DNA of 64,000 nucleotides from Candidatus Heimdallarchaeota archaeon (GTDB lineage: Archaea; Asgardarchaeota; Heimdallarchaeia; JABLTI01): positions 318,784-382,783 of the forward strand of contig JABCTZ010000046.1 of NCBI GenBank assembly GCA_018238155.1. The letters are read 5' to 3'. Position numbers and translations under genes: made by a program. Every line of letters starts with the position of its first letter. Positions within the stretch are counted from its first letter, which is position 1. The notes beneath the pieces are model-generated. The model searched no databases, was not told where the DNA came from, and worked only from the letters and a program-made list of their open reading frames with translations. This document shows, in pieces, positions 29,839-38,553 of the stretch.

Positions 29839-30028
29839 TTACAGTTTAGAATTTACGATTAAGAAGAATCCGTACCTTTGTTTCTAAACTGTAAATTTAA
29901 TATAAGATTAAGACTAATGATAACTTGGAGAGTAAAAATATATTTTTAATTTACTCTCCGAATCCCATAAACCTCTCTCCCCAATAAATAACTCCCTTTT
30001 CCTGTGACGGGGGATTAAATCCCTCGTC
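29839..30028. repeat. Cluster of three inverted repeats
   Basis: 13-bp IR 29839-29851/29882-29894; 10-bp IR 29927-29936/29950-29959; 11-bp near-palindrome 30006-30016/30018-30028. Confidence 0.6.
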
Positions 30029-32428: not shown

Positions 32429-34297
32429 TCATTCTTCGTCTCTTTCTATCCATGAGAACTTATTTTGCAATGTTTTTGAGTAATAATTTCTCCAGTCATA
32501 GTCTACTTCTTTCCCCCAAGCATGATATACTCTTGGATCAATGTATGATTTCAAGCTAGTTCCTAAATTCCACTCCTTAGTTTTCTTGGAAATTCGCTCT
32601 TGTGATTCTATTTTCTTAAATGCTTCTTTTGCCTTGTAAACACGTTCCTTTGCAGTACCTACGCTATTCTTTCCTCTAACGATTTGACTTTGAGCGGTTT
32701 CTATACGTTTCTTAGCTGTGCCAATGCGTTTCCTTTGTGTTTGTACTTTCTTTTTTTGTTTCAAACTTGCTCGAATGAGTTTCTCTTTCTCCTTTGAATT
32801 TTGCTCAGAAGTAGAAAGATCATCTAGCTCAAGTAAATCAGCTTTCTTTTGCTCGAGAATTTTTTGTTGAGTTTTTTCTTGTTTTCGTCTTTCTTTTAGG
32901 TTCTTCTTAAGCTCTTCAAGACGTTCTTCTCTACCACTTTGATTTAGTTTTGCTTTTTCAATACGTTCAGTTGATTTAACCTTACGTTCTCTAAATCGTT
33001 GAATTCTATTATCCCAATTTTTGGGTACTTGTTTCATATGAGTACATACAACTGCTGCCTCTCTATTGGCCATCGTTGCAGCTTCTTTCTTTTTATACTC
33101 TGGATCATCTGCAGAAGTATCAGATTCTTCTAAATGAGCTGAAACGATATTTGTTGCATGAAACGTTCTAAATACTTTTGCTGTAAGACCGGGTACAATA
33201 TTACTGAAGAATTCATTTACATGAGTACTTCCTATTTTCGAGAAAATCTGAGGTTTATCTTGTAAACTCTTTTCAGCTTCATCAATTAGAAATTGCAATT
33301 CTTTCACAATATATAATGGAAAAGTAGTATTTTTATTCCATTCCACAGAATCTTTTCCAAGAAAATTAAAATTAACTTTTTCACCATCAATTGTTATATG
33401 TTCAGGTCTTAAAGTAGTTGCACCAACGGTATCTGCTTCATCTTCGTCCTTTTCATCACCGACTCTTAAAATTAATTGATCAATGATGTAACAAGCAAGA
33501 GCAATTTTCCTTGTGCGGGAATTATCACTTCTAATACCATTTTCTATTTCTAATCGAATTTTCTCTAAATGATTGTTAATTTTCCGGGCTTTGTTGAATT
33601 TTTCAATTTCTCTATCTTGTTTTATTGGTGTGTTATCGGATAACCACACATATTTTGTTCTTTTAGAAAGTTTATCTTCCCATTTTGCAACCCAAAGACA
33701 TTCTGGTTCCCATACTATCTCTTTCCATTTTTCATTCCAATTCTTTTCCTTTTGTTTTTCTGATAACTCACTTAAATTAAGAATTATATCTTTTGAACAA
33801 GGACCTTCTTTCCATTTACCTCTCATTGGATGTTCTCCCCGACCCATAAATATACTACTTGGTTCAGCGGTCCAAGCTCCAATTTCTACTTTCATTCCAT
33901 CTAAAGAAGCTGTGCCATAATATTCTTTTAACTCTTCTCGAACAATCTTTCGGTCTTCTCTTGCTTGCTTCTTTTGTTCTTTAGTTAAGCTTTCTCTCTT
34001 AGCTCTTTCAGATTCAATATGATCGATTACTTCAGAAAAATCAATATCTTCATCTGTGAGATTTTCATGCCCTAATTTTCTGCTGAAGTCAGCAAAGAAA
34101 TTCTTGCAAAAAACAGGATCATCTACATAGACTGTAGAAAGTTTTCTCACCCAGGCAATAGCCATTTGTTCTTGCATGGGATCGAGTTCTATCCTAGAAT
34201 CTTTTAGTCCGATTGTCAACCCAAGATGAGGAATATCTGAAATCATGATTCCGTTGTGAATTAATTTATTTATTTTTGCCAAGGGACTGAACCTCAC
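32429..34297 (-). CDS. Eukaryote-like DNA topoisomerase IB
   Basis: FMGRGEHPMRG, LRVGDEKD, ADTVG, FLGKDS, TAKVFRT, VCTH, long coiled-coil linker, catalytic Tyr in SLKSYIDPR. Confidence 0.95.
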   Translation of the reverse strand: MRFSPLAKINKLIHNGIMISDIPHLGLTIGLKDSRIELDPMQEQMAIAWVRKLSTVYVDDPVFCKNFFADFSRKLGHENLTDEDIDFSEVIDHIESERAKRESLTKEQKKQAREDRKIVREELKEYYGTASLDGMKVEIGAWTAEPSSIFMGRGEHPMRGKWKEGPCSKDIILNLSELSEKQKEKNWNEKWKEIVWEPECLWVAKWEDKLSKRTKYVWLSDNTPIKQDREIEKFNKARKINNHLEKIRLEIENGIRSDNSRTRKIALACYIIDQLILRVGDEKDEDEADTVGATTLRPEHITIDGEKVNFNFLGKDSVEWNKNTTFPLYIVKELQFLIDEAEKSLQDKPQIFSKIGSTHVNEFFSNIVPGLTAKVFRTFHATNIVSAHLEESDTSADDPEYKKKEAATMANREAAVVCTHMKQVPKNWDNRIQRFRERKVKSTERIEKAKLNQSGREERLEELKKNLKERRKQEKTQQKILEQKKADLLELDDLSTSEQNSKEKEKLIRASLKQKKKVQTQRKRIGTAKKRIETAQSQIVRGKNSVGTAKERVYKAKEAFKKIESQERISKKTKEWNLGTSLKSYIDPRVYHAWGKEVDYDWRNYYSKTLQNKFSWIERDEE

Positions 34298-34378: not shown

Positions 34379-35083
34379 TTATCTTACCTCACATACTTTA
34401 AAATTAGCTTTAATTTTTTCACAAGCATCTTCAAGAATACCTAATCGATATGGTTGAAGTTTTTCAAATTCCTTATCATAACACTTCAGAGGTCTAAATT
34501 GTTGTATATATAACCTCTTTGCTCCTTTAATCATCTCAGCAATGATTGGTATGTCATGTTCTGGATCAATTATTGTAGGAACAATTGTTGTTCTAAATTC
34601 ATAATCAATATCAGAATTAATTATTATTTTAATAGACCTTAGAATATTTTTGATGTTAACTTTTTTACCTGCAGCGAGATGATATTTCTCTGGAATAGCT
34701 TTAACGTCCATTGCAATATAATCAAGCAATTTGTCATCTATAAGTTTCTGAATTACAGCAGGATGATTACCATTGGTGTCAATTTTTGTTTTTAGACCCA
34801 TTCCTTTGATAATTTTCAGAAATTCAGGCAATCTTTTACTGATCGAAGGTTCTCCTCCTGTAATAGATACTCCATCCAACCATTTGCTTTTTGATCTCTT
34901 TTCAATTTCTGCAAGAATTTCATCAATATCAAAACTTTTTACTGCATCTAAAGGAATTAAATCCGGATTATGGCAGAATGGGCATCGAAAATCACATCCT
35001 GCAAGAAAGATACTATCTACGATTAGACCAGACCACTCAATAATTGAACCTTGCTTATACCCCTTAATTTCAAGTCCCGGCAA
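34379..35083 (-). CDS. nrdG: Anaerobic ribonucleotide reductase activating enzyme (radical SAM)
   Basis: GCDFRCPFCHN, ITGGEP, DTNG, YEFRTT. Confidence 0.92.
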   Translation of the reverse strand: MPGLEIKGYKQGSIIEWSGLIVDSIFLAGCDFRCPFCHNPDLIPLDAVKSFDIDEILAEIEKRSKSKWLDGVSITGGEPSISKRLPEFLKIIKGMGLKTKIDTNGNHPAVIQKLIDDKLLDYIAMDVKAIPEKYHLAAGKKVNIKNILRSIKIIINSDIDYEFRTTIVPTIIDPEHDIPIIAEMIKGAKRLYIQQFRPLKCYDKEFEKLQPYRLGILEDACEKIKANFKVCEVR

Positions 35084-35102: not shown

Positions 35103-35363
35103 TTATTTTGCTTGAAGCTCTTTTTGTACAAGATCTATTGGAGGTACTTCGCCTCTCCAAGCTTTGACTTCACTATCAGCTTCATCAACGATAATCATTG
35201 AAGGGGTTGAAAGAACATCAAAATAAACTGATTCTGATAAACCTTCTTCATCATCTAAATTAAACCACTCTACAGTAGTGCCTTTTTCTTCAAGTTTTTT
35301 TGCTAAATCTTTTGCTTGTGGGCATTTTGGACAATCTATTTTTGTAAATACTTTTAGTTTCAT
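35103..35363 (-). CDS. nrdH: NrdH-like thioredoxin/glutaredoxin
   Basis: CPKC redox motif, VLSTP cis-Pro; located in the nrd cluster. Confidence 0.8.
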   Translation of the reverse strand: MKLKVFTKIDCPKCPQAKDLAKKLEEKGTTVEWFNLDDEEGLSESVYFDVLSTPSMIIVDEADSEVKAWRGEVPPIDLVQKELQAK

Positions 35364-35478: not shown

Positions 35479-35712
35479 CTATACGTCATCAGACCAATAA
35501 TTGCCTTTTTGTCTTCTCTTTAACTCTGATTTCTTAGAGTTGTTCCAATTATCAATTATACTAAAGTATCCTACTACTCTGCTTATACCGTAAACATTGT
35601 CGCTGTTACAGTATGGGCAATTAGGAGTAGAACACGTTTCACCTACATGTTCTATATTTTGTTCTGTTCTTACAGTGGTTATTTTTGTTATAGTTGTTTT
35701 TGCCTGTTCCAT
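35479..35712 (-). CDS. Stand-alone glycyl-radical domain of class III RNR
   Basis: CPYCNSDNVYGISRVVGYFS..NWNNSKKSELKRR; own SD (GAGG) and TATAAAT box (35753-35759). Confidence 0.85.
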   Translation of the reverse strand: MEQAKTTITKITTVRTEQNIEHVGETCSTPNCPYCNSDNVYGISRVVGYFSIIDNWNNSKKSELKRRQKGNYWSDDV

Positions 35713-35792
35713 ACGATTTTTCCTCTATAGTTGATTTTTTCTTTTTTAAGCCATTTATACTGTTTTTTTTATTATTTCTTTTTTTTAGCCCA

Positions 35793-38213
35793 CTATTGAC
35801 TTTGTGCAGAAGAGCTTGTTGATCTACCAAAGCCCCTACTAACTTGTCCACAATCTCTACAGACTGTAAACTCTGGGGAAAACACTATTTGTGCGCTCTG
35901 GGTATTATCCCATGTTTTCTTAACCAGATTCATAATTGATTCCGCCGAAGGCTTTTGCTCACCGACGAAAATATGTGTGATAGAACCGCTTTCAATAAGA
36001 GTATTGAATTTTCCTTGTTTAGAAATTCTATCAATGATATCAATAGGTGCATCAGCTGCGAAGTGTGCACTATTGGTATAGTAAATTGATCCTTCGTTAA
36101 TATCACCTTTGACATAATGAATACTGTCAGGATATTCCTTTAGATCAGTTCTCGCGAATTTAAATGGAGCACTTTCTCCTGGTGTTTCTTCAAGAGTAAC
36201 TGTCAAACCATGAAGCTTTTGGAGAGCTTTTGCTTTCAGGTTCATTCCAGCGATAACTTTCAAACCTAATTTGTAGGCTTTTTCACTGTCATGTAATTCT
36301 TCATCAATGAGATATTGCACACATTCATTTAATCCAATAACGCCAATGATGTAAGTTGCTTTTTCCAAATCAACATAGGGTCGTCCATCTTCAGCATTCA
36401 TACCAATTTGCCAAAGGGTGCCATTTTCTTGAGTCATAAGTTGAGTAATGAATGCCTTCTTCTCAAGATGAGCTTCCATCGCTAAATCCATTGCTCGTCT
36501 AATTTCTTCGATTGTCTTCTTTACGTTGCCTTTTCCAGCACGATATGCTGCTTGTGGTAAATTAATGCTTACATTTTGGAATCCACAATAGCGCATGCTT
36601 TCAGGATGTTCAATCATGTACATGTCAGTGATTGTTGTTTTTAGTCGACAACACATTGAAAGATTGATTTCATCACGATCAAATATGAAATAAGTTGAGC
36701 CATTCTCAGAAGATATCTTACAAGCCAGTTGTAACAATTTGTACTGTTTTGGGTCATCAAAGGAGCTTTGATCAACGTGTAAATCGAATTTTGGAAAGGG
36801 GAAAACTTTCGATTCAGAATCTCCTTCTAACCAAACTTCCATTAATGCTTTAGCAAACAATTGAGTTTCTTTTTCGTACTCGCCATAATTTTTTCCAGTG
36901 TATTTACCACCAGGACCAATTGCGGGAATATTTTTGAGATATCTAGGAATGCCTAGATGAATATTAAAATCTACAAAAAGGGTTTGTCCCCCTCTTGAGA
37001 ACGCATTTTGACTACAAGAATAAATCAATCGTTGTGCTTCTTGTTTAATTTGTTTATATGGGACACCAACAAAATATGGGGCATAAAAGATATTCAGATA
37101 AGCTAATCCTAAAGCACCGGCATAGTATGCTTGCATTGAAGCTAAGAATGTATTAAGATGCCCAGTAAGAGTATCTGCATGATTTGCTGGGTTTGAAACG
37201 GTTGAGAGATTTAACAAGTTCAGACCATATTTTTTGATATATTCCAAGCTATGTGCAGAGCAATATACCCTTACAGGGAAACCCAAATCATGCAGGTAAA
37301 TCATTCCTTTTCTATGTGCATTTGCTACTTCTGGAGAGAAAAGCTCCTGAAGAGCATATTTTTTCAAAACTGCTTCTGCAATAGCAAGGTTCACCGCCTC
37401 TGGATTATTGGCGACTACATTACTATTTTCTTTGCTTTTTGAATGAATAAGTTGTTTAAGATCGAAAATAGGCATACCAACAGATTTCTGTTGAGTTAAT
37501 TTTGATTTATACCCACGAATAAATAATTCATTATCAACTAAACTTCTGATAAGGTCAACCGAAATTACATCATAACCTGAAGCGAAAATCTTTCGCTCTA
37601 CTTCTGTAGAAACAGAATCGGCATCAGCTTGATCTAAACCAGCTTCTTTGACCAAAGCAGCAGAAATTTTCACTCGATCCCAGCTAGAAATTTCTTCACG
37701 AGTATCACCTGAAACCATTAAAAGAAGTTCAGTAGAATCACGACTTTTTACATCTACTTCTTTTACTACTTTTAGCTTCTCCAACTCACGTTCAAATGAA
37801 GCGATATCAGTGAATCGTCTATAAACTGAAGCATAACGAATATAGGCGACTTCGTCGAGTCCTCTGAGTTTTTTCATAACTAACTCTCCTACGATATTAG
37901 CTTCGATTTCCAATTCTTCGTTTTTTCTCAATTCACTTTCTATTTCATCAATAACTTCTTCAATTTCCTCAGAAGAAATAGGTCTTTTTTCGCAAGCCTT
38001 TACTATTCCTCTTTTAACTTTCTCACGATCAAATGGTTCCCTACGTTTATCCTTCTTTACAATAGTAAGCTTCACTTGTTCTATTCGTTCATAAGTTGAA
38101 AATCGCTTCTTACATTGAAGACATTCTCTTCTTCGTCTATTTGCTTTCATGTCTTCTGATGATCGTTTATCAACGACTCTTGTATTGGGCGATTGACAGT
38201 AAGGACATTTCAT
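35793..38213 (-). CDS. nrdD: NrdR-NrdD fusion: NrdR repressor plus second ATP cone plus class III RNR core, lacking the glycyl-radical loop
   Basis: MKCPYC..RRRRECLQC..RFSTYE and VAYIRYASVY (NrdR); YLHDL, VYCS, FPFP, SMCCRL, ETPGES, YYTNS (NrdD); ends shortly after TVCRDCG. Confidence 0.92.
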   Translation of the reverse strand: MKCPYCQSPNTRVVDKRSSEDMKANRRRRECLQCKKRFSTYERIEQVKLTIVKKDKRREPFDREKVKRGIVKACEKRPISSEEIEEVIDEIESELRKNEELEIEANIVGELVMKKLRGLDEVAYIRYASVYRRFTDIASFERELEKLKVVKEVDVKSRDSTELLLMVSGDTREEISSWDRVKISAALVKEAGLDQADADSVSTEVERKIFASGYDVISVDLIRSLVDNELFIRGYKSKLTQQKSVGMPIFDLKQLIHSKSKENSNVVANNPEAVNLAIAEAVLKKYALQELFSPEVANAHRKGMIYLHDLGFPVRVYCSAHSLEYIKKYGLNLLNLSTVSNPANHADTLTGHLNTFLASMQAYYAGALGLAYLNIFYAPYFVGVPYKQIKQEAQRLIYSCSQNAFSRGGQTLFVDFNIHLGIPRYLKNIPAIGPGGKYTGKNYGEYEKETQLFAKALMEVWLEGDSESKVFPFPKFDLHVDQSSFDDPKQYKLLQLACKISSENGSTYFIFDRDEINLSMCCRLKTTITDMYMIEHPESMRYCGFQNVSINLPQAAYRAGKGNVKKTIEEIRRAMDLAMEAHLEKKAFITQLMTQENGTLWQIGMNAEDGRPYVDLEKATYIIGVIGLNECVQYLIDEELHDSEKAYKLGLKVIAGMNLKAKALQKLHGLTVTLEETPGESAPFKFARTDLKEYPDSIHYVKGDINEGSIYYTNSAHFAADAPIDIIDRISKQGKFNTLIESGSITHIFVGEQKPSAESIMNLVKKTWDNTQSAQIVFSPEFTVCRDCGQVSRGFGRSTSSSAQSQ

Positions 38214-38342
38214 TATTCTAGTTCACTCGTTTTTTCTTAGGCACTATTTTCTTGCACCGAATTTTCCTTAGGGGTTTTATGTCGGGTTTAGGAGACGGTC
38301 TCGCCTCTGAGCGAGTTTGTTTCCATTGGAATGCACCAGAGA

Positions 38343-38389
38343 ATACCACATCTGGTGGTTTGTGTTCCCTCAAACACAACATATTGTAT
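38343..38389. promoter_or_regulatory. Tandem NrdR boxes
   Basis: ATACCACATCTGGTGG (38343-38358) and ACACAACATATTGTAT (38374-38389), 31 bp start-to-start, just downstream of a minus-strand TTTAAATA box (38415-38422). Confidence 0.8.
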
Positions 38390-38553
38390 ATAATACTGTG
38401 TTCTGAATCAATTGTATTTAAAGGTTATGAGAATAAAGTCATTTAAAAAAAGGAGTAATTGTCTATTATAATCGATAAAGAATTCAGTAAAGAGTTTTTC
38501 ACTTGAACAATTTGTAAAATAAAAAAAGAGAAATTGTCCTATAAATATTTCAT

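Follow-up and report, generated by a model that had tools for sequence, protein, structure and literature searches.

The window analysed here, the whole stretch of 64,000 nucleotides, comes from the genome of a Heimdall-type (Asgard) archaeon (4.08 Mb, 90.7% complete). Its minus strand carries an operon with the gene order nrdR::nrdD(core) - nrdD(glycyl-radical mini-subunit) - thioredoxin-like gene - nrdG. The first gene, an open reading frame (ORF) of 806 amino acids that is free of internal stops (35793..38213, minus strand), encodes a full-length NrdR and a class III ribonucleotide reductase (RNR) in one reading frame. Its parts and the genes that follow it are, in the direction of reading:

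37770..38213, minus strand: NrdR module, residues 1-148 (TIGR00244, PF22811, PF03477 and solved structures)
38088-38213, minus strand: zinc ribbon, residues 1-42 (Pfam Zn_ribbon_NrdR, PF22811, E 3e-17)
37806-38066, minus strand: NrdR-type ATP-cone, residues 50-136 (PF03477)
37503..37691, minus strand: second, weak ATP-cone, about residues 175-237 (PF03477, E 1.9e-5, model positions 10-74 of 88)
35841..37430, minus strand: class III RNR core, residues 262-791 (PF13597, NRDD, model positions 1-517 of 562, E 7.5e-113)
36645-36656, minus strand: finger loop MCCR (C521, C522, R523) within the RNR core
35850-35861, minus strand: first CxxC of the zinc site, CRDC, within the RNR core
35793..35795, minus strand: TAG stop of the 806-aa chain, 18 residues past the first CxxC
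35713..35792, minus strand: A-rich spacer of 80 nt, with GAGG 9 nt upstream of the ATG of the small gene
35479..35712, minus strand: glycyl-radical subunit, 77 aa (PF13597, model positions 518-561 of 562), with CPYC and then VYGISRVVGYFS
35103..35363, minus strand: thioredoxin/glutaredoxin-like protein, 86 aa (PF13192, PF00462)
34379..35083, minus strand: NrdG2, radical-SAM activase of the anaerobic RNR (TIGR02495; Radical_SAM, Fer4_12)

A preliminary description of this DNA had claimed that NrdR is joined to NrdD in frame and without a stop. This is indeed the case: within the 806-aa ORF, both protein families are recognised above the cut-offs of their models, NrdR by NCBIfam TIGR00244 (197 bits, cut-off 124.65, covering positions 1-147 of 147) and NrdD by TIGR02487 (350 bits, cut-off 326). 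Moreover, residues 1-148 match the solved NrdR structures 9FZF and 9FVR end to end (E 1e-40), and both the four-cysteine zinc ribbon (C3, C6, C31 and C34) and the arginine cluster R26-R29 are present. The residues by which the NrdR of S. coelicolor contacts DNA are R12, D15, R17, R26-29 and R37 (PMC9110341), and every one of them is retained in the fused protein, with identical numbering. A comparison of 14 fused proteins from several phyla showed no variation at C3, C6, C31, C34, R17, R27-29 and R37, and at least 90% of these proteins have D15. The module departs in one point from what defines an NrdR: it is not a free-standing protein of about 150-180 amino acids but is fused in frame to NrdD. 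Residues 119-300 of the fused protein are colinear with residues 86-264 of an unfused bacterial NrdD, and the NrdR cone is therefore found in the place of the regulatory cone that belongs to the enzyme itself. As read from this alignment, the N-terminal allosteric ATP-cone of NrdD is replaced by a whole NrdR, i. e. by a zinc ribbon and an NrdR-type ATP-cone. The second ATP-cone is colinear with the matching segment of an unfused bacterial NrdD; as it has lost the K-R motif, it probably does not bind nucleotides.

The region upstream of the fused gene contains the following elements:

38415..38422, minus strand: archaeal TATA box TTTAAATA (TTTAWATA in nine relatives)
38374..38389: NrdR box 1, ATACAATATGTTGTGT in minus-strand reading, 14 of 16 positions identical to the bacterial consensus ACACWATATATWGTGT
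38359-38373: inter-box spacer of 15 bp, with the box centres 31 bp apart
38343..38358: NrdR box 2, CCACCAGATGTGGTAT, 10 of 16 positions identical to the same bacterial consensus
38214..38342, minus strand: remaining 5' leader after box 2, 129 nt, unconserved

The centre of an archaeal TATA box usually lies at about -26, and the position of the TATA box predicts a transcription start at about 38392. Counted from the first T of the TATA box, box 1 starts 33 nt further downstream, at about +4 of the predicted transcript. In the 4.08 Mb of the genome, sites with at most two mismatches to the bacterial consensus occur four times, box 1 included, and box 1 is the sole such match in the window. Box 2 matches the bacterial consensus weakly and is recognisable mainly by its conservation (the consensus of the relatives is MCACNAGNNNTRGTAT) and its spacing. 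With a weight matrix derived from relatives of at most 85% identity, from which this genome and its 95% relative had been left out, the two boxes rank first and second genome-wide, and the pair scores 37.1 as compared to 16.0 for the runner-up pair. The earlier assignment of two NrdR boxes 31 bp apart is thus confirmed. The arrangement is that of NrdR operators, with paired 16-bp boxes at integral helical turns, and the commonest spacer between the boxes in bacteria is 15-16 bp (PMC12051234).

Conservation of the boxes, which the preliminary description had proposed to examine, is evident among the relatives: the mean pairwise identity is 0.93 for the TATA box, 0.82 for box 1 and 0.72 for box 2, as compared to 0.44-0.45 for the flanks and 0.26 for the leader after box 2, the length of which varies from 51 to 136 nt. 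The boxes have thus been kept while the adjacent DNA diverged. Box pairs at a distance of 30-33 or 41-43 bp were also detected upstream of 24-25 of 28 fused genes; the median is 8 mismatches as compared to 13 in shuffles. Within the 250 nt scanned, a convincing pair is absent at three to four of these 28 loci (L048, L053, L055 and, marginally, L046). The distance of 33-34 nt between the TATA box and box 1 recurs at loci labelled as Nanohalarchaeota and Woesearchaeota. The locus had been described as a bacterial regulator placed on an archaeal TATA promoter. The promoter part of this statement stands, as both the TATA box and the boxes are conserved; what we see is, however, a widespread archaeal design rather than a one-off import. 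No other tandem box pair was found in the 4.08-Mb genome, including the two other genes for radical subunits; the idea of a wider NrdR regulon was dropped since the pair described here is the only one, and the regulon appears to be a single operon. A vague likeness of the leader of about 180 nt to a cobalamin riboswitch was not followed further: Rfam gave no match at E up to 1 between positions 30000 and 45000, and past box 2 the leader is only 0.26 identical among the relatives.

A search of 41 genomes, this one (90.7% complete) and 40 related ones, did not detect any nrdR that stands alone. Each of the 10 genomes of the family has a single NrdR zinc ribbon, which is always that of the fusion, and none was found in 31 other genomes of the class. 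Since the boxes are conserved and recurrent, and since no free-standing nrdR was found, the best reading of the locus is in our opinion that the fused protein represses its own gene by a nucleotide-gated mechanism, and we regard this as quite probable. The earlier claim that the enzyme binds its own operator and represses its operon is upheld as far as the contact residues, the conserved boxes and the lack of a free NrdR are concerned; binding, repression and nucleotide dependence are what we infer from them. The proposed mechanism is as follows: At a rising ratio of dATP to ATP, both nucleotides would be loaded into the NrdR-type cones, and this would join two reductase dimers as a tetramer, as in the case of free NrdR. 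By means of its four zinc ribbons, the tetramer would then bind to the two 16-bp boxes, three helical turns apart. Archaeal repressors that are bound downstream of the TATA box block polymerase recruitment or promoter escape. Docking just past the TATA box, about 4 nt after the predicted start, would interfere with RNA polymerase at either of these steps. With ATP alone, the protein would leave the DNA and act as an enzyme. It is probable that the NrdR-type cone throttles catalysis as well. An enzyme is usually far more abundant than a single operator requires, and the design is therefore workable only under strict control of DNA binding by nucleotides, which we assume here. Moreover, the reductase of 650 residues that is attached to each NrdR module could obstruct the compact DNA-bound tetramer that is formed by free NrdR.

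Two alternative explanations for the presence of NrdR in this protein deserve consideration, and we regard each of them as improbable. (i) The NrdR module might be an allosteric or oligomerisation domain only, in which the ATP-cone switches catalysis and the zinc ribbon and the boxes are relics without any role in transcription. The location of the NrdR cone in the slot of the regulatory cone of the enzyme is in agreement with this idea, as is the control of activity via oligomers that has been described for class III ATP-cones (PMC11226230). However, a relic is unlikely to keep its DNA-contact residues invariant across phyla, and the box spacing and the distance to the TATA box are fixed while the nearby DNA drifts to 26-45% identity. 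(ii) The fusion might exist at the level of the gene only: cleavage by a protease within the linker (residues 148-165), or internal initiation, would yield NrdR and NrdD as two proteins, which would behave like their bacterial counterparts. The linker that follows residue 148 is indeed short and less conserved, and the bacterial relatives have two proteins that are encoded by adjacent genes. On the other hand, the preliminary description had seen no obvious internal Shine-Dalgarno sequence, and in agreement with this no conserved Shine-Dalgarno sequence with an in-frame start was found at the junction (11 of 12 loci). Moreover, Met166 is unconserved among the fused loci, and the fused frame has been retained in at least 28 species-level genomes from several archaeal phyla.

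Self-repression would concern an active enzyme. Judged by its sequence, the 806-aa chain contains a class III core that is catalytically intact, and the beta-A residue Cys318 as well as C521, C522 and R523 of the finger loop are invariant in 14 fused proteins. The NrdD core is single in this genome, no large subunit of a class I or class II RNR was found, and the fused enzyme is thus the sole ribonucleotide reductase found in the genome (90.7% complete). The 806-aa enzyme of the preliminary description turned out to be the large catalytic piece, whereas the radical loop is located on a separate protein of 77 amino acids. The match of the 806-aa ORF to the NRDD profile stops 45 positions before the end of the profile, and the missing part comprises the second CxxC and the glycyl-radical loop. 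The four-cysteine zinc site and the RVxGY loop, which in an NrdD are found on one chain, are therefore split here, and the two chains together carry every NrdD element. In the relatives, the stop codon of the core is found at the equivalent place, as TAG, TAA or TGA. The N-terminal third of the 77-aa subunit is variable and is followed by the second CxxC (CPYC) and the SRVVGY loop; 28 columns are invariant among 20 homologues. Two further copies of the gene are present elsewhere in the genome. The spacer between the core and the subunit gene measures 47-80 nt in the relatives, which retain the GAGG motif, and length differences among metagenome contigs are limited to this spacer (35713..35792). 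A frameshift or read-through at the stop codon of the core was considered and rejected: the small ORF occurs in all three relative frames and behind all three stop codons, it has its own GAGG and ATG or an ATGA overlap, and the length of the spacer varies.

The core and the 77-aa subunit are predicted to form a complex with an ipSAE of 0.89 (best control, 0.00); among solved complexes, 58 of 80 attain the ipSAE mark, and among mismatched pairs, 2 of 110. Contact agreement between runs was at least 66%, and the pLDDT of the partner at least 65. This prediction may reflect memory, as the intact form of the split protein has been solved. Enzyme activity would require the 77-aa radical subunit from its separate gene: the subunit would complete the zinc site with the CRDC motif of the core and place Gly48 at the finger loop. 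The downstream genes fit this picture of a functional reductase. The MCCR class of finger-loop motifs has been tied to thioredoxin-type reduction (PMC9669993), and the locus combines this motif with a nearby redoxin gene, as is typical of the thioredoxin-dependent NrdD subtype. The 86-aa redoxin, which matches the MJ0307-family thioredoxin model below its cut-off, is likely to reduce this type of NrdD with two cysteines in its finger loop (MCCR). The cognate activase that accompanies an NrdD is encoded in the operon as well (NrdG2, TIGR02495, 187.9 bits as compared to a cut-off of 131.15). That the reductase is catalytically dead and kept purely as a nucleotide-sensing regulator, as might be thought of an 806-aa chain without the glycyl-radical loop, is thus very unlikely: no other RNR was found in the genome, Cys318 and the MCCR loop are invariant, the genes for NrdG2 and the redoxin follow downstream, and a conserved neighbouring gene provides the radical loop, on a product that is predicted to dock on the core. 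It is tempting to speculate, even though we consider this rather less probable than not, that catalysis and operator binding are both controlled by the NrdR-type cone, as the only functional cone of the protein. The tetramer that is inhibited by dATP would then be the repressor, ATP would release and reactivate it, and the radical would be provided in trans by one of three interchangeable subunits of 75-80 amino acids.

An assembly or sequencing artefact, i. e. a missed stop or frameshift that merged two genes, has nothing in its favour and is already refuted by the recurrence of the in-frame fusion in the assemblies of eight relatives (804-808 aa), at 28 loci from other archaea and on metagenome contigs from four independent sediment studies. 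The preliminary description had called for reads across the junction and for a search for the fusion in relatives, and both gave a positive answer: the contigs span the junction with a net frame change of zero, although they are DNA contigs that contain a small share of the sequence words, and some bins are not covered in some runs. Among the public runs, none is listed as an RNA data set with this sequence. According to the ORFs parsed from tblastn matches at 80 loci, Asgard and DPANN-type archaea usually have NrdR and NrdD in the fused form. The NrdR modules of the fusions form a clade of their own, together with two CPR-like bacterial rows. Adjacent nrdR-nrdD gene pairs are found in Planctomycetota/Brocadiia, Clostridia, Omnitrophota, Nitrospirota and other bacteria, and in some Woesearchaeota. 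The pairs and the fusion share one NrdD subfamily (53-59% identity), the same gene order and related NrdR modules. In the pairs, however, nrdR is separate (148-182 aa) and NrdD has its own first ATP-cone, whereas the fusion is a single frame and has lost this cone. The comparison suggests that the fusion probably arose from an adjacent nrdR-nrdD gene pair, as present in the bacterial relatives.

The free NrdR proteins of E. coli (9FZF, 9FVR, 9FXK) and S. coelicolor (7P37, 7P3F) share with the fused protein the zinc ribbon and the ATP-cone over 148 residues, and with this locus the tandem 16-bp palindromic boxes with a 15-bp spacer in the promoter of an RNR operon. In contrast, free NrdR is a separate protein of about 150 amino acids, whereas here it forms the N-terminus of the enzyme that is under its predicted control. 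Moreover, the bacterial boxes lie over the -35 and -10 regions, whereas here the promoter is of the archaeal TATA type, with the boxes just past the predicted start. The combination of catalysis and operator binding on one polypeptide, switched by a metabolite, resembles PutA, BirA and NadR; the folds and metabolites of these proteins are unrelated, and in the present case a dedicated repressor was joined ready-made to its target as the DNA-binding part. The NrdD of Prevotella copri (8P23; PMC11226230) is likewise a glycyl-radical reductase with an N-terminal ATP-cone that senses ATP and dATP and changes the oligomeric state; unlike the fusion, it lacks a zinc ribbon, DNA binding has not been reported for it, and its radical domain belongs to the same chain. 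A small separate protein with the radical-glycine loop and a disordered N-terminal part is known for pyruvate formate-lyase (GrcA/YfiD), and such spare-part glycyl-radical proteins are, according to a review, known solely for formate lyases (PMC13450708). The enzyme that is rescued by GrcA/YfiD possesses a radical domain; the core described here does not. If the above speculation on a cone with two outputs and a radical provided in trans is true, the in-trans radical subunits would be the first spare-part-like system beyond formate lyases. The class II RNR NrdJa/NrdJb is split over two genes (PMC9669993), like this class III RNR; here, the cut passes through the zinc site.

In a literature search that included few subscription journals, we found no publication in which NrdR is fused to NrdD or in which a class III RNR is split. 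Recent papers describe NrdR as a free-standing bacterial repressor that is rare or absent in archaea, and a single mobile type of ATP-cone that governs RNR at the levels of both gene and enzyme, each time in a separate protein. The fusions of Asgard and DPANN-type archaea would unite these two levels of control in one polypeptide that is encoded behind a TATA promoter with a conserved operator. The fusion would thus provide a natural system for studying (i) the coupling of enzyme inhibition to gene repression by one nucleotide sensor, (ii) the action of a bacterial-type repressor on the archaeal transcription machinery, and (iii) the origin of enzyme-repressor fusions from neighbouring genes. 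In the databases, the fused proteins are named either 'anaerobic ribonucleoside-triphosphate reductase' or 'transcriptional regulator NrdR', and the 77-aa radical subunits are listed as 'hypothetical protein'. Surveys of NrdR or RNR that filter by length or name are thus bound to miss both the fusions and the small subunits.

The fused gene belongs to a compact operon on the minus strand (38422 down to 34379) and encodes P0001, a chain of 806 amino acids (ORF 35793-38213) that contains no internal stops. According to Pfam, it is built up as follows:

P0001 residues 1-42: NrdR zinc ribbon
P0001 residues 50-136: ATP-cone
P0001 residues ~175-237: second, weak ATP-cone
P0001 residues 262-791: NRDD domain

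This one chain exceeds the curated cut-offs of both NCBIfam equivalog models, TIGR00244 for NrdR (197 bits, cut-off 124.65, all 147 positions covered) and TIGR02487 for NrdD (350 bits, cut-off 326). Moreover, the solved NrdR structures 9FZF, 9FVR (E 1e-40) and 7P37 (E 4e-31) align end to end with residues 1-148, and all residues that contact DNA in the complex of S. coelicolor NrdR (R12, D15, R17, R26-29 and R37; PMC9110341) are found in P0001 with identical numbering. Across 14 aligned fused proteins, no variation is seen at the four zinc cysteines or at R17, R27-29 and R37, and D15 is retained in at least 90%. Since the domain matches and the DNA-contact residues are all present, the preliminary description of the protein as a complete NrdR joined to NrdD was correct.

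The fusion is real and conserved. A fused ORF of 804-808 amino acids is present in eight of the ten remaining genomes in the genus as well as in the sole genome of the sister genus, the nearest relatives being labelled Candidatus Heimdallarchaeota or Promethearchaeati; in a ninth genome of the genus only the end of the core is found, and the contig is cut there. The junction between NrdR and NrdD (~37720-37770) is bridged by contigs from four independent sediment metagenome studies without any net change of frame. The earlier remark that there is no obvious internal Shine-Dalgarno sequence extends to the relatives: a conserved Shine-Dalgarno sequence with an in-frame start at the junction is absent in 11 of 12 loci, and the position of Met166 is occupied by Leu in relatives.

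The fused chain of 806 amino acids stands as described, but does not make up the complete enzyme. Its match to the NRDD profile ends at position 517 of 562, and the chain stops 18 residues beyond the first CxxC (CRDC) of the zinc site, whereas the second CxxC (CPYC) and the radical loop SRVVGY reside in a separate ORF of 77 amino acids (35479-35712, minus strand), which follows after a TAG stop, an A-rich spacer of 80 nt and a GAGG ahead of the ATG. In relatives, the small ORF occurs in all three relative frames, after TAG, TAA or TGA and a spacer of 47-80 nt, and at DPANN-type loci an ATGA overlap with the core gene is common. Because of these varying frames, stops and spacers and the ATGA overlaps, the separation of core and radical loop is a true two-gene split. 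The genome contains three such mini-genes (75-81 amino acids, with a CxxC and a glycyl-radical loop):

window 35479-35712, minus strand: mini-gene of the operon
G000:C1:113059-113280 (L003 1465-1710, minus strand): mini-gene on contig C1
G000:C11:60693-60914 (L004 1477-1764, minus strand): mini-gene on contig C11

Three copies per genome are the rule in the genus, as compared to only one NrdD core, itself without the loop, in this genome. Among 20 homologues of the small protein, 28 columns are invariant in the C-terminal 45 residues, and the N-terminal third is variable. A model of core residues 255-806 with the 77-aa protein and zinc reached an ipSAE of 0.89 (best control 0.00), a level that 58 of 80 solved complexes and 2 of 110 mismatched pairs attain, with at least 66% contact agreement between runs and a partner pLDDT of at least 65. 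In this model, C785 and C788 of the core adjoin C32 and C35 of the small protein, which is also contacted by the finger loop. The model supports binding of the 77-aa protein by the core; the two are, however, halves of a protein that has been solved intact, and the pass may be memory of those structures. The three small stand-alone radical-loop proteins resemble the GrcA/YfiD spare parts; according to a 2026 review (PMC13450708), however, such parts are known only for formate lyases, and here the core itself lacks the loop.

The split occurs widely within this NrdD subfamily, namely at nearly all archaeal-labelled loci (L035-L055, L062-L065, L071, L088-L090, L097 and L103; L090 is labelled Saccharibacteria), where the ATGA start/stop overlap is frequent, and at a few bacterial ones (L058, L073, L093, L096 and L098); most bacterial homologues are contiguous.

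It might be argued that P0001 is a dead enzyme turned regulator. This is unlikely, since it carries the sole NrdD core, Cys318 of beta-A and the finger loop M-C521-C522-R523 are invariant, and genes for a thioredoxin-like protein and then NrdG2 (TIGR02495, 188 bits, cut-off 131) follow downstream in the operon. The MCCR motif is the mark of the thioredoxin-type NrdD subclass (PMC9669993), and no large subunit of a class I or II reductase was found in the genome. Directly downstream of nrdG, on the same strand, lies an ORF of 622 amino acids (32429-34297, minus strand) without an NCBIfam match. As for the regulator, the fused copy is the only NrdR zinc ribbon in this genome, which is 90.7% complete. 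Nine further genomes of the family likewise have the fused copy alone; of 31 others in the class, none has such a ribbon, and no free NrdR was present in the genomes searched.

An alignment of the upstream regions of nine relatives revealed three conserved islands amid diverged DNA (values are mean pairwise identities):

upstream of the TATA box: flanking DNA, 0.44
38415-38422, minus strand: TATA box, consensus TTTAWATA, 0.93
between TATA box and box 1: flanking DNA, 0.45
38374-38389: box 1, predicted NrdR box, ATACAAKATGTTGTGT, 0.82
38343-38358: box 2, predicted NrdR box, MCACNAGNNNTRGTAT, 0.72
38214-38342, minus strand: leader after box 2, 0.26

The two box matches 31 bp apart that had been noticed beforehand are conserved well above their flanks. 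With a spacer of 15 bp (16 bp in one relative), the box centres are 31 bp apart, as is most common in bacteria (PMC12051234). From the start of the TATA box it is 33-34 nt to box 1, which would therefore begin at about +4 as counted from an inferred transcription start. Box 1 matches the bacterial consensus ACACWATATATWGTGT at 14 and box 2 at 10 of 16 positions; 14/16 is attained at only 4 sites of the 4.08-Mb genome. A weight matrix from which this genome and its 95% relative had been left out placed the two boxes first and second genome-wide, with a pair score of 37.1 as compared to 16.0 for the next best pair. A small hairpin (CTCGC-TCAGAG-GCGAG, 38300-38315, minus strand) in the non-conserved part of the 5' leader is shared with the 95% relative only and has no Rfam match.

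A scan of species-representative genomes yielded 573 related loci. Among the best 80, which were parsed, the NrdR module is in frame with NrdD in 28, all archaeal-labelled (Heimdall, Nanohalarchaeota, Aenigmatarchaeota, Woesearchaeota, Nanoarchaeota, Micrarchaeia, Parvarchaeota and Norongarragalinales), and a separate nrdR gene (148-182 amino acids) immediately precedes nrdD in 44, mostly bacterial, with four labelled Woesearchaeota or Methanosarcinales. Box pairs at 30-33 or 41-43 bp recur upstream of 24-25 of the 28 fused genes; their median total of mismatches is 8, as compared to 13 in shuffled sequence, and totals of at most 7 occur in 25% of fused loci versus 0.07% of shuffles. Nanohalarchaeota- and Woesearchaeota-labelled loci likewise place box 1 at 33-34 nt from TATA. 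At one further archaeal locus, L051 (uncultured archaeon LFW-252_1), the fused-type frame stops after 519 amino acids, inside the core; gene breakage, a frameshift or misassembly may lie behind this. Six loci from other families of the class (L020-L022 and L024-L026; genomes G021, G023 and G035) lack the fusion and have very long open frames (1242-2466 amino acids, matching parts of the NrdD core at only 28-40% identity) that may be intein-laden or otherwise expanded NrdD-like genes. Three fused proteins (P0095, P0112 and P0113; 1323-1383 amino acids) carry intein/homing-endonuclease domains (PF14528, PF14890) within the reductase. The taxon labels of L032/P0012 (Candidatus Bathyarchaeia) and of L048, L050 and L088 (Methanosarcinales) conflict with the placement of the NrdR-NrdD sequences of these MAGs: one shares 83% identity with the Heimdall group, and the rest fall among DPANN rows; binning or labelling errors or recent transfer could account for this.

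Over residues 119-300 the fused protein runs colinear with an unfused bacterial homologue (its residues 86-264), so that the NrdR cone sits at the exact place of the homologue's first ATP-cone; behind it, both have the same degenerate second cone. Taken with the adjacent nrdR-nrdD pairs of bacteria, this speaks for a joining of neighbouring genes, with loss of the first cone of NrdD. A tree of 75 NrdR modules is divided by a supported split (97/88) into a clade of 39 bacterial rows, all separate genes, and a clade of 36 rows that comprises 29 fused, five unfused archaeal and two bacterial ones (one labelled Saccharibacteria, one only 'bacterium'). Three changes on this tree are needed to account for the fused state, and a single origin is still conceivable. 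With the Heimdall group placed inside the DPANN-type rows, the gene may have been transferred between archaeal lineages.

At the level of sequence, the picture is that of a complete NrdR fused to a live reductase core, with a conserved, genome-unique predicted tandem operator at an archaeal promoter. Judging by what NrdR (PMC9110341, PMC12051234) and class III ATP-cones (PMC11226230) are known to do, the most likely mechanism is that with ATP and dATP bound the NrdR cones would join two reductase dimers, that four zinc ribbons would then fill both boxes just past the predicted start site, and that this occupancy would keep the polymerase from being recruited or from escaping; when only ATP is bound, the protein would be off the DNA. 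The self-repression proposed earlier would take this form, and the same cone may throttle catalysis too. Recent papers regard NrdR as bacterial and rare or absent in archaea and make no mention of a fusion with a reductase, and the full-text literature searched holds no description of an NrdR-NrdD fusion or a split class III enzyme. The architecture is undescribed rather than unseen, since precomputed Pfam annotations display it in about 100 protein clusters among the best 120 matches.
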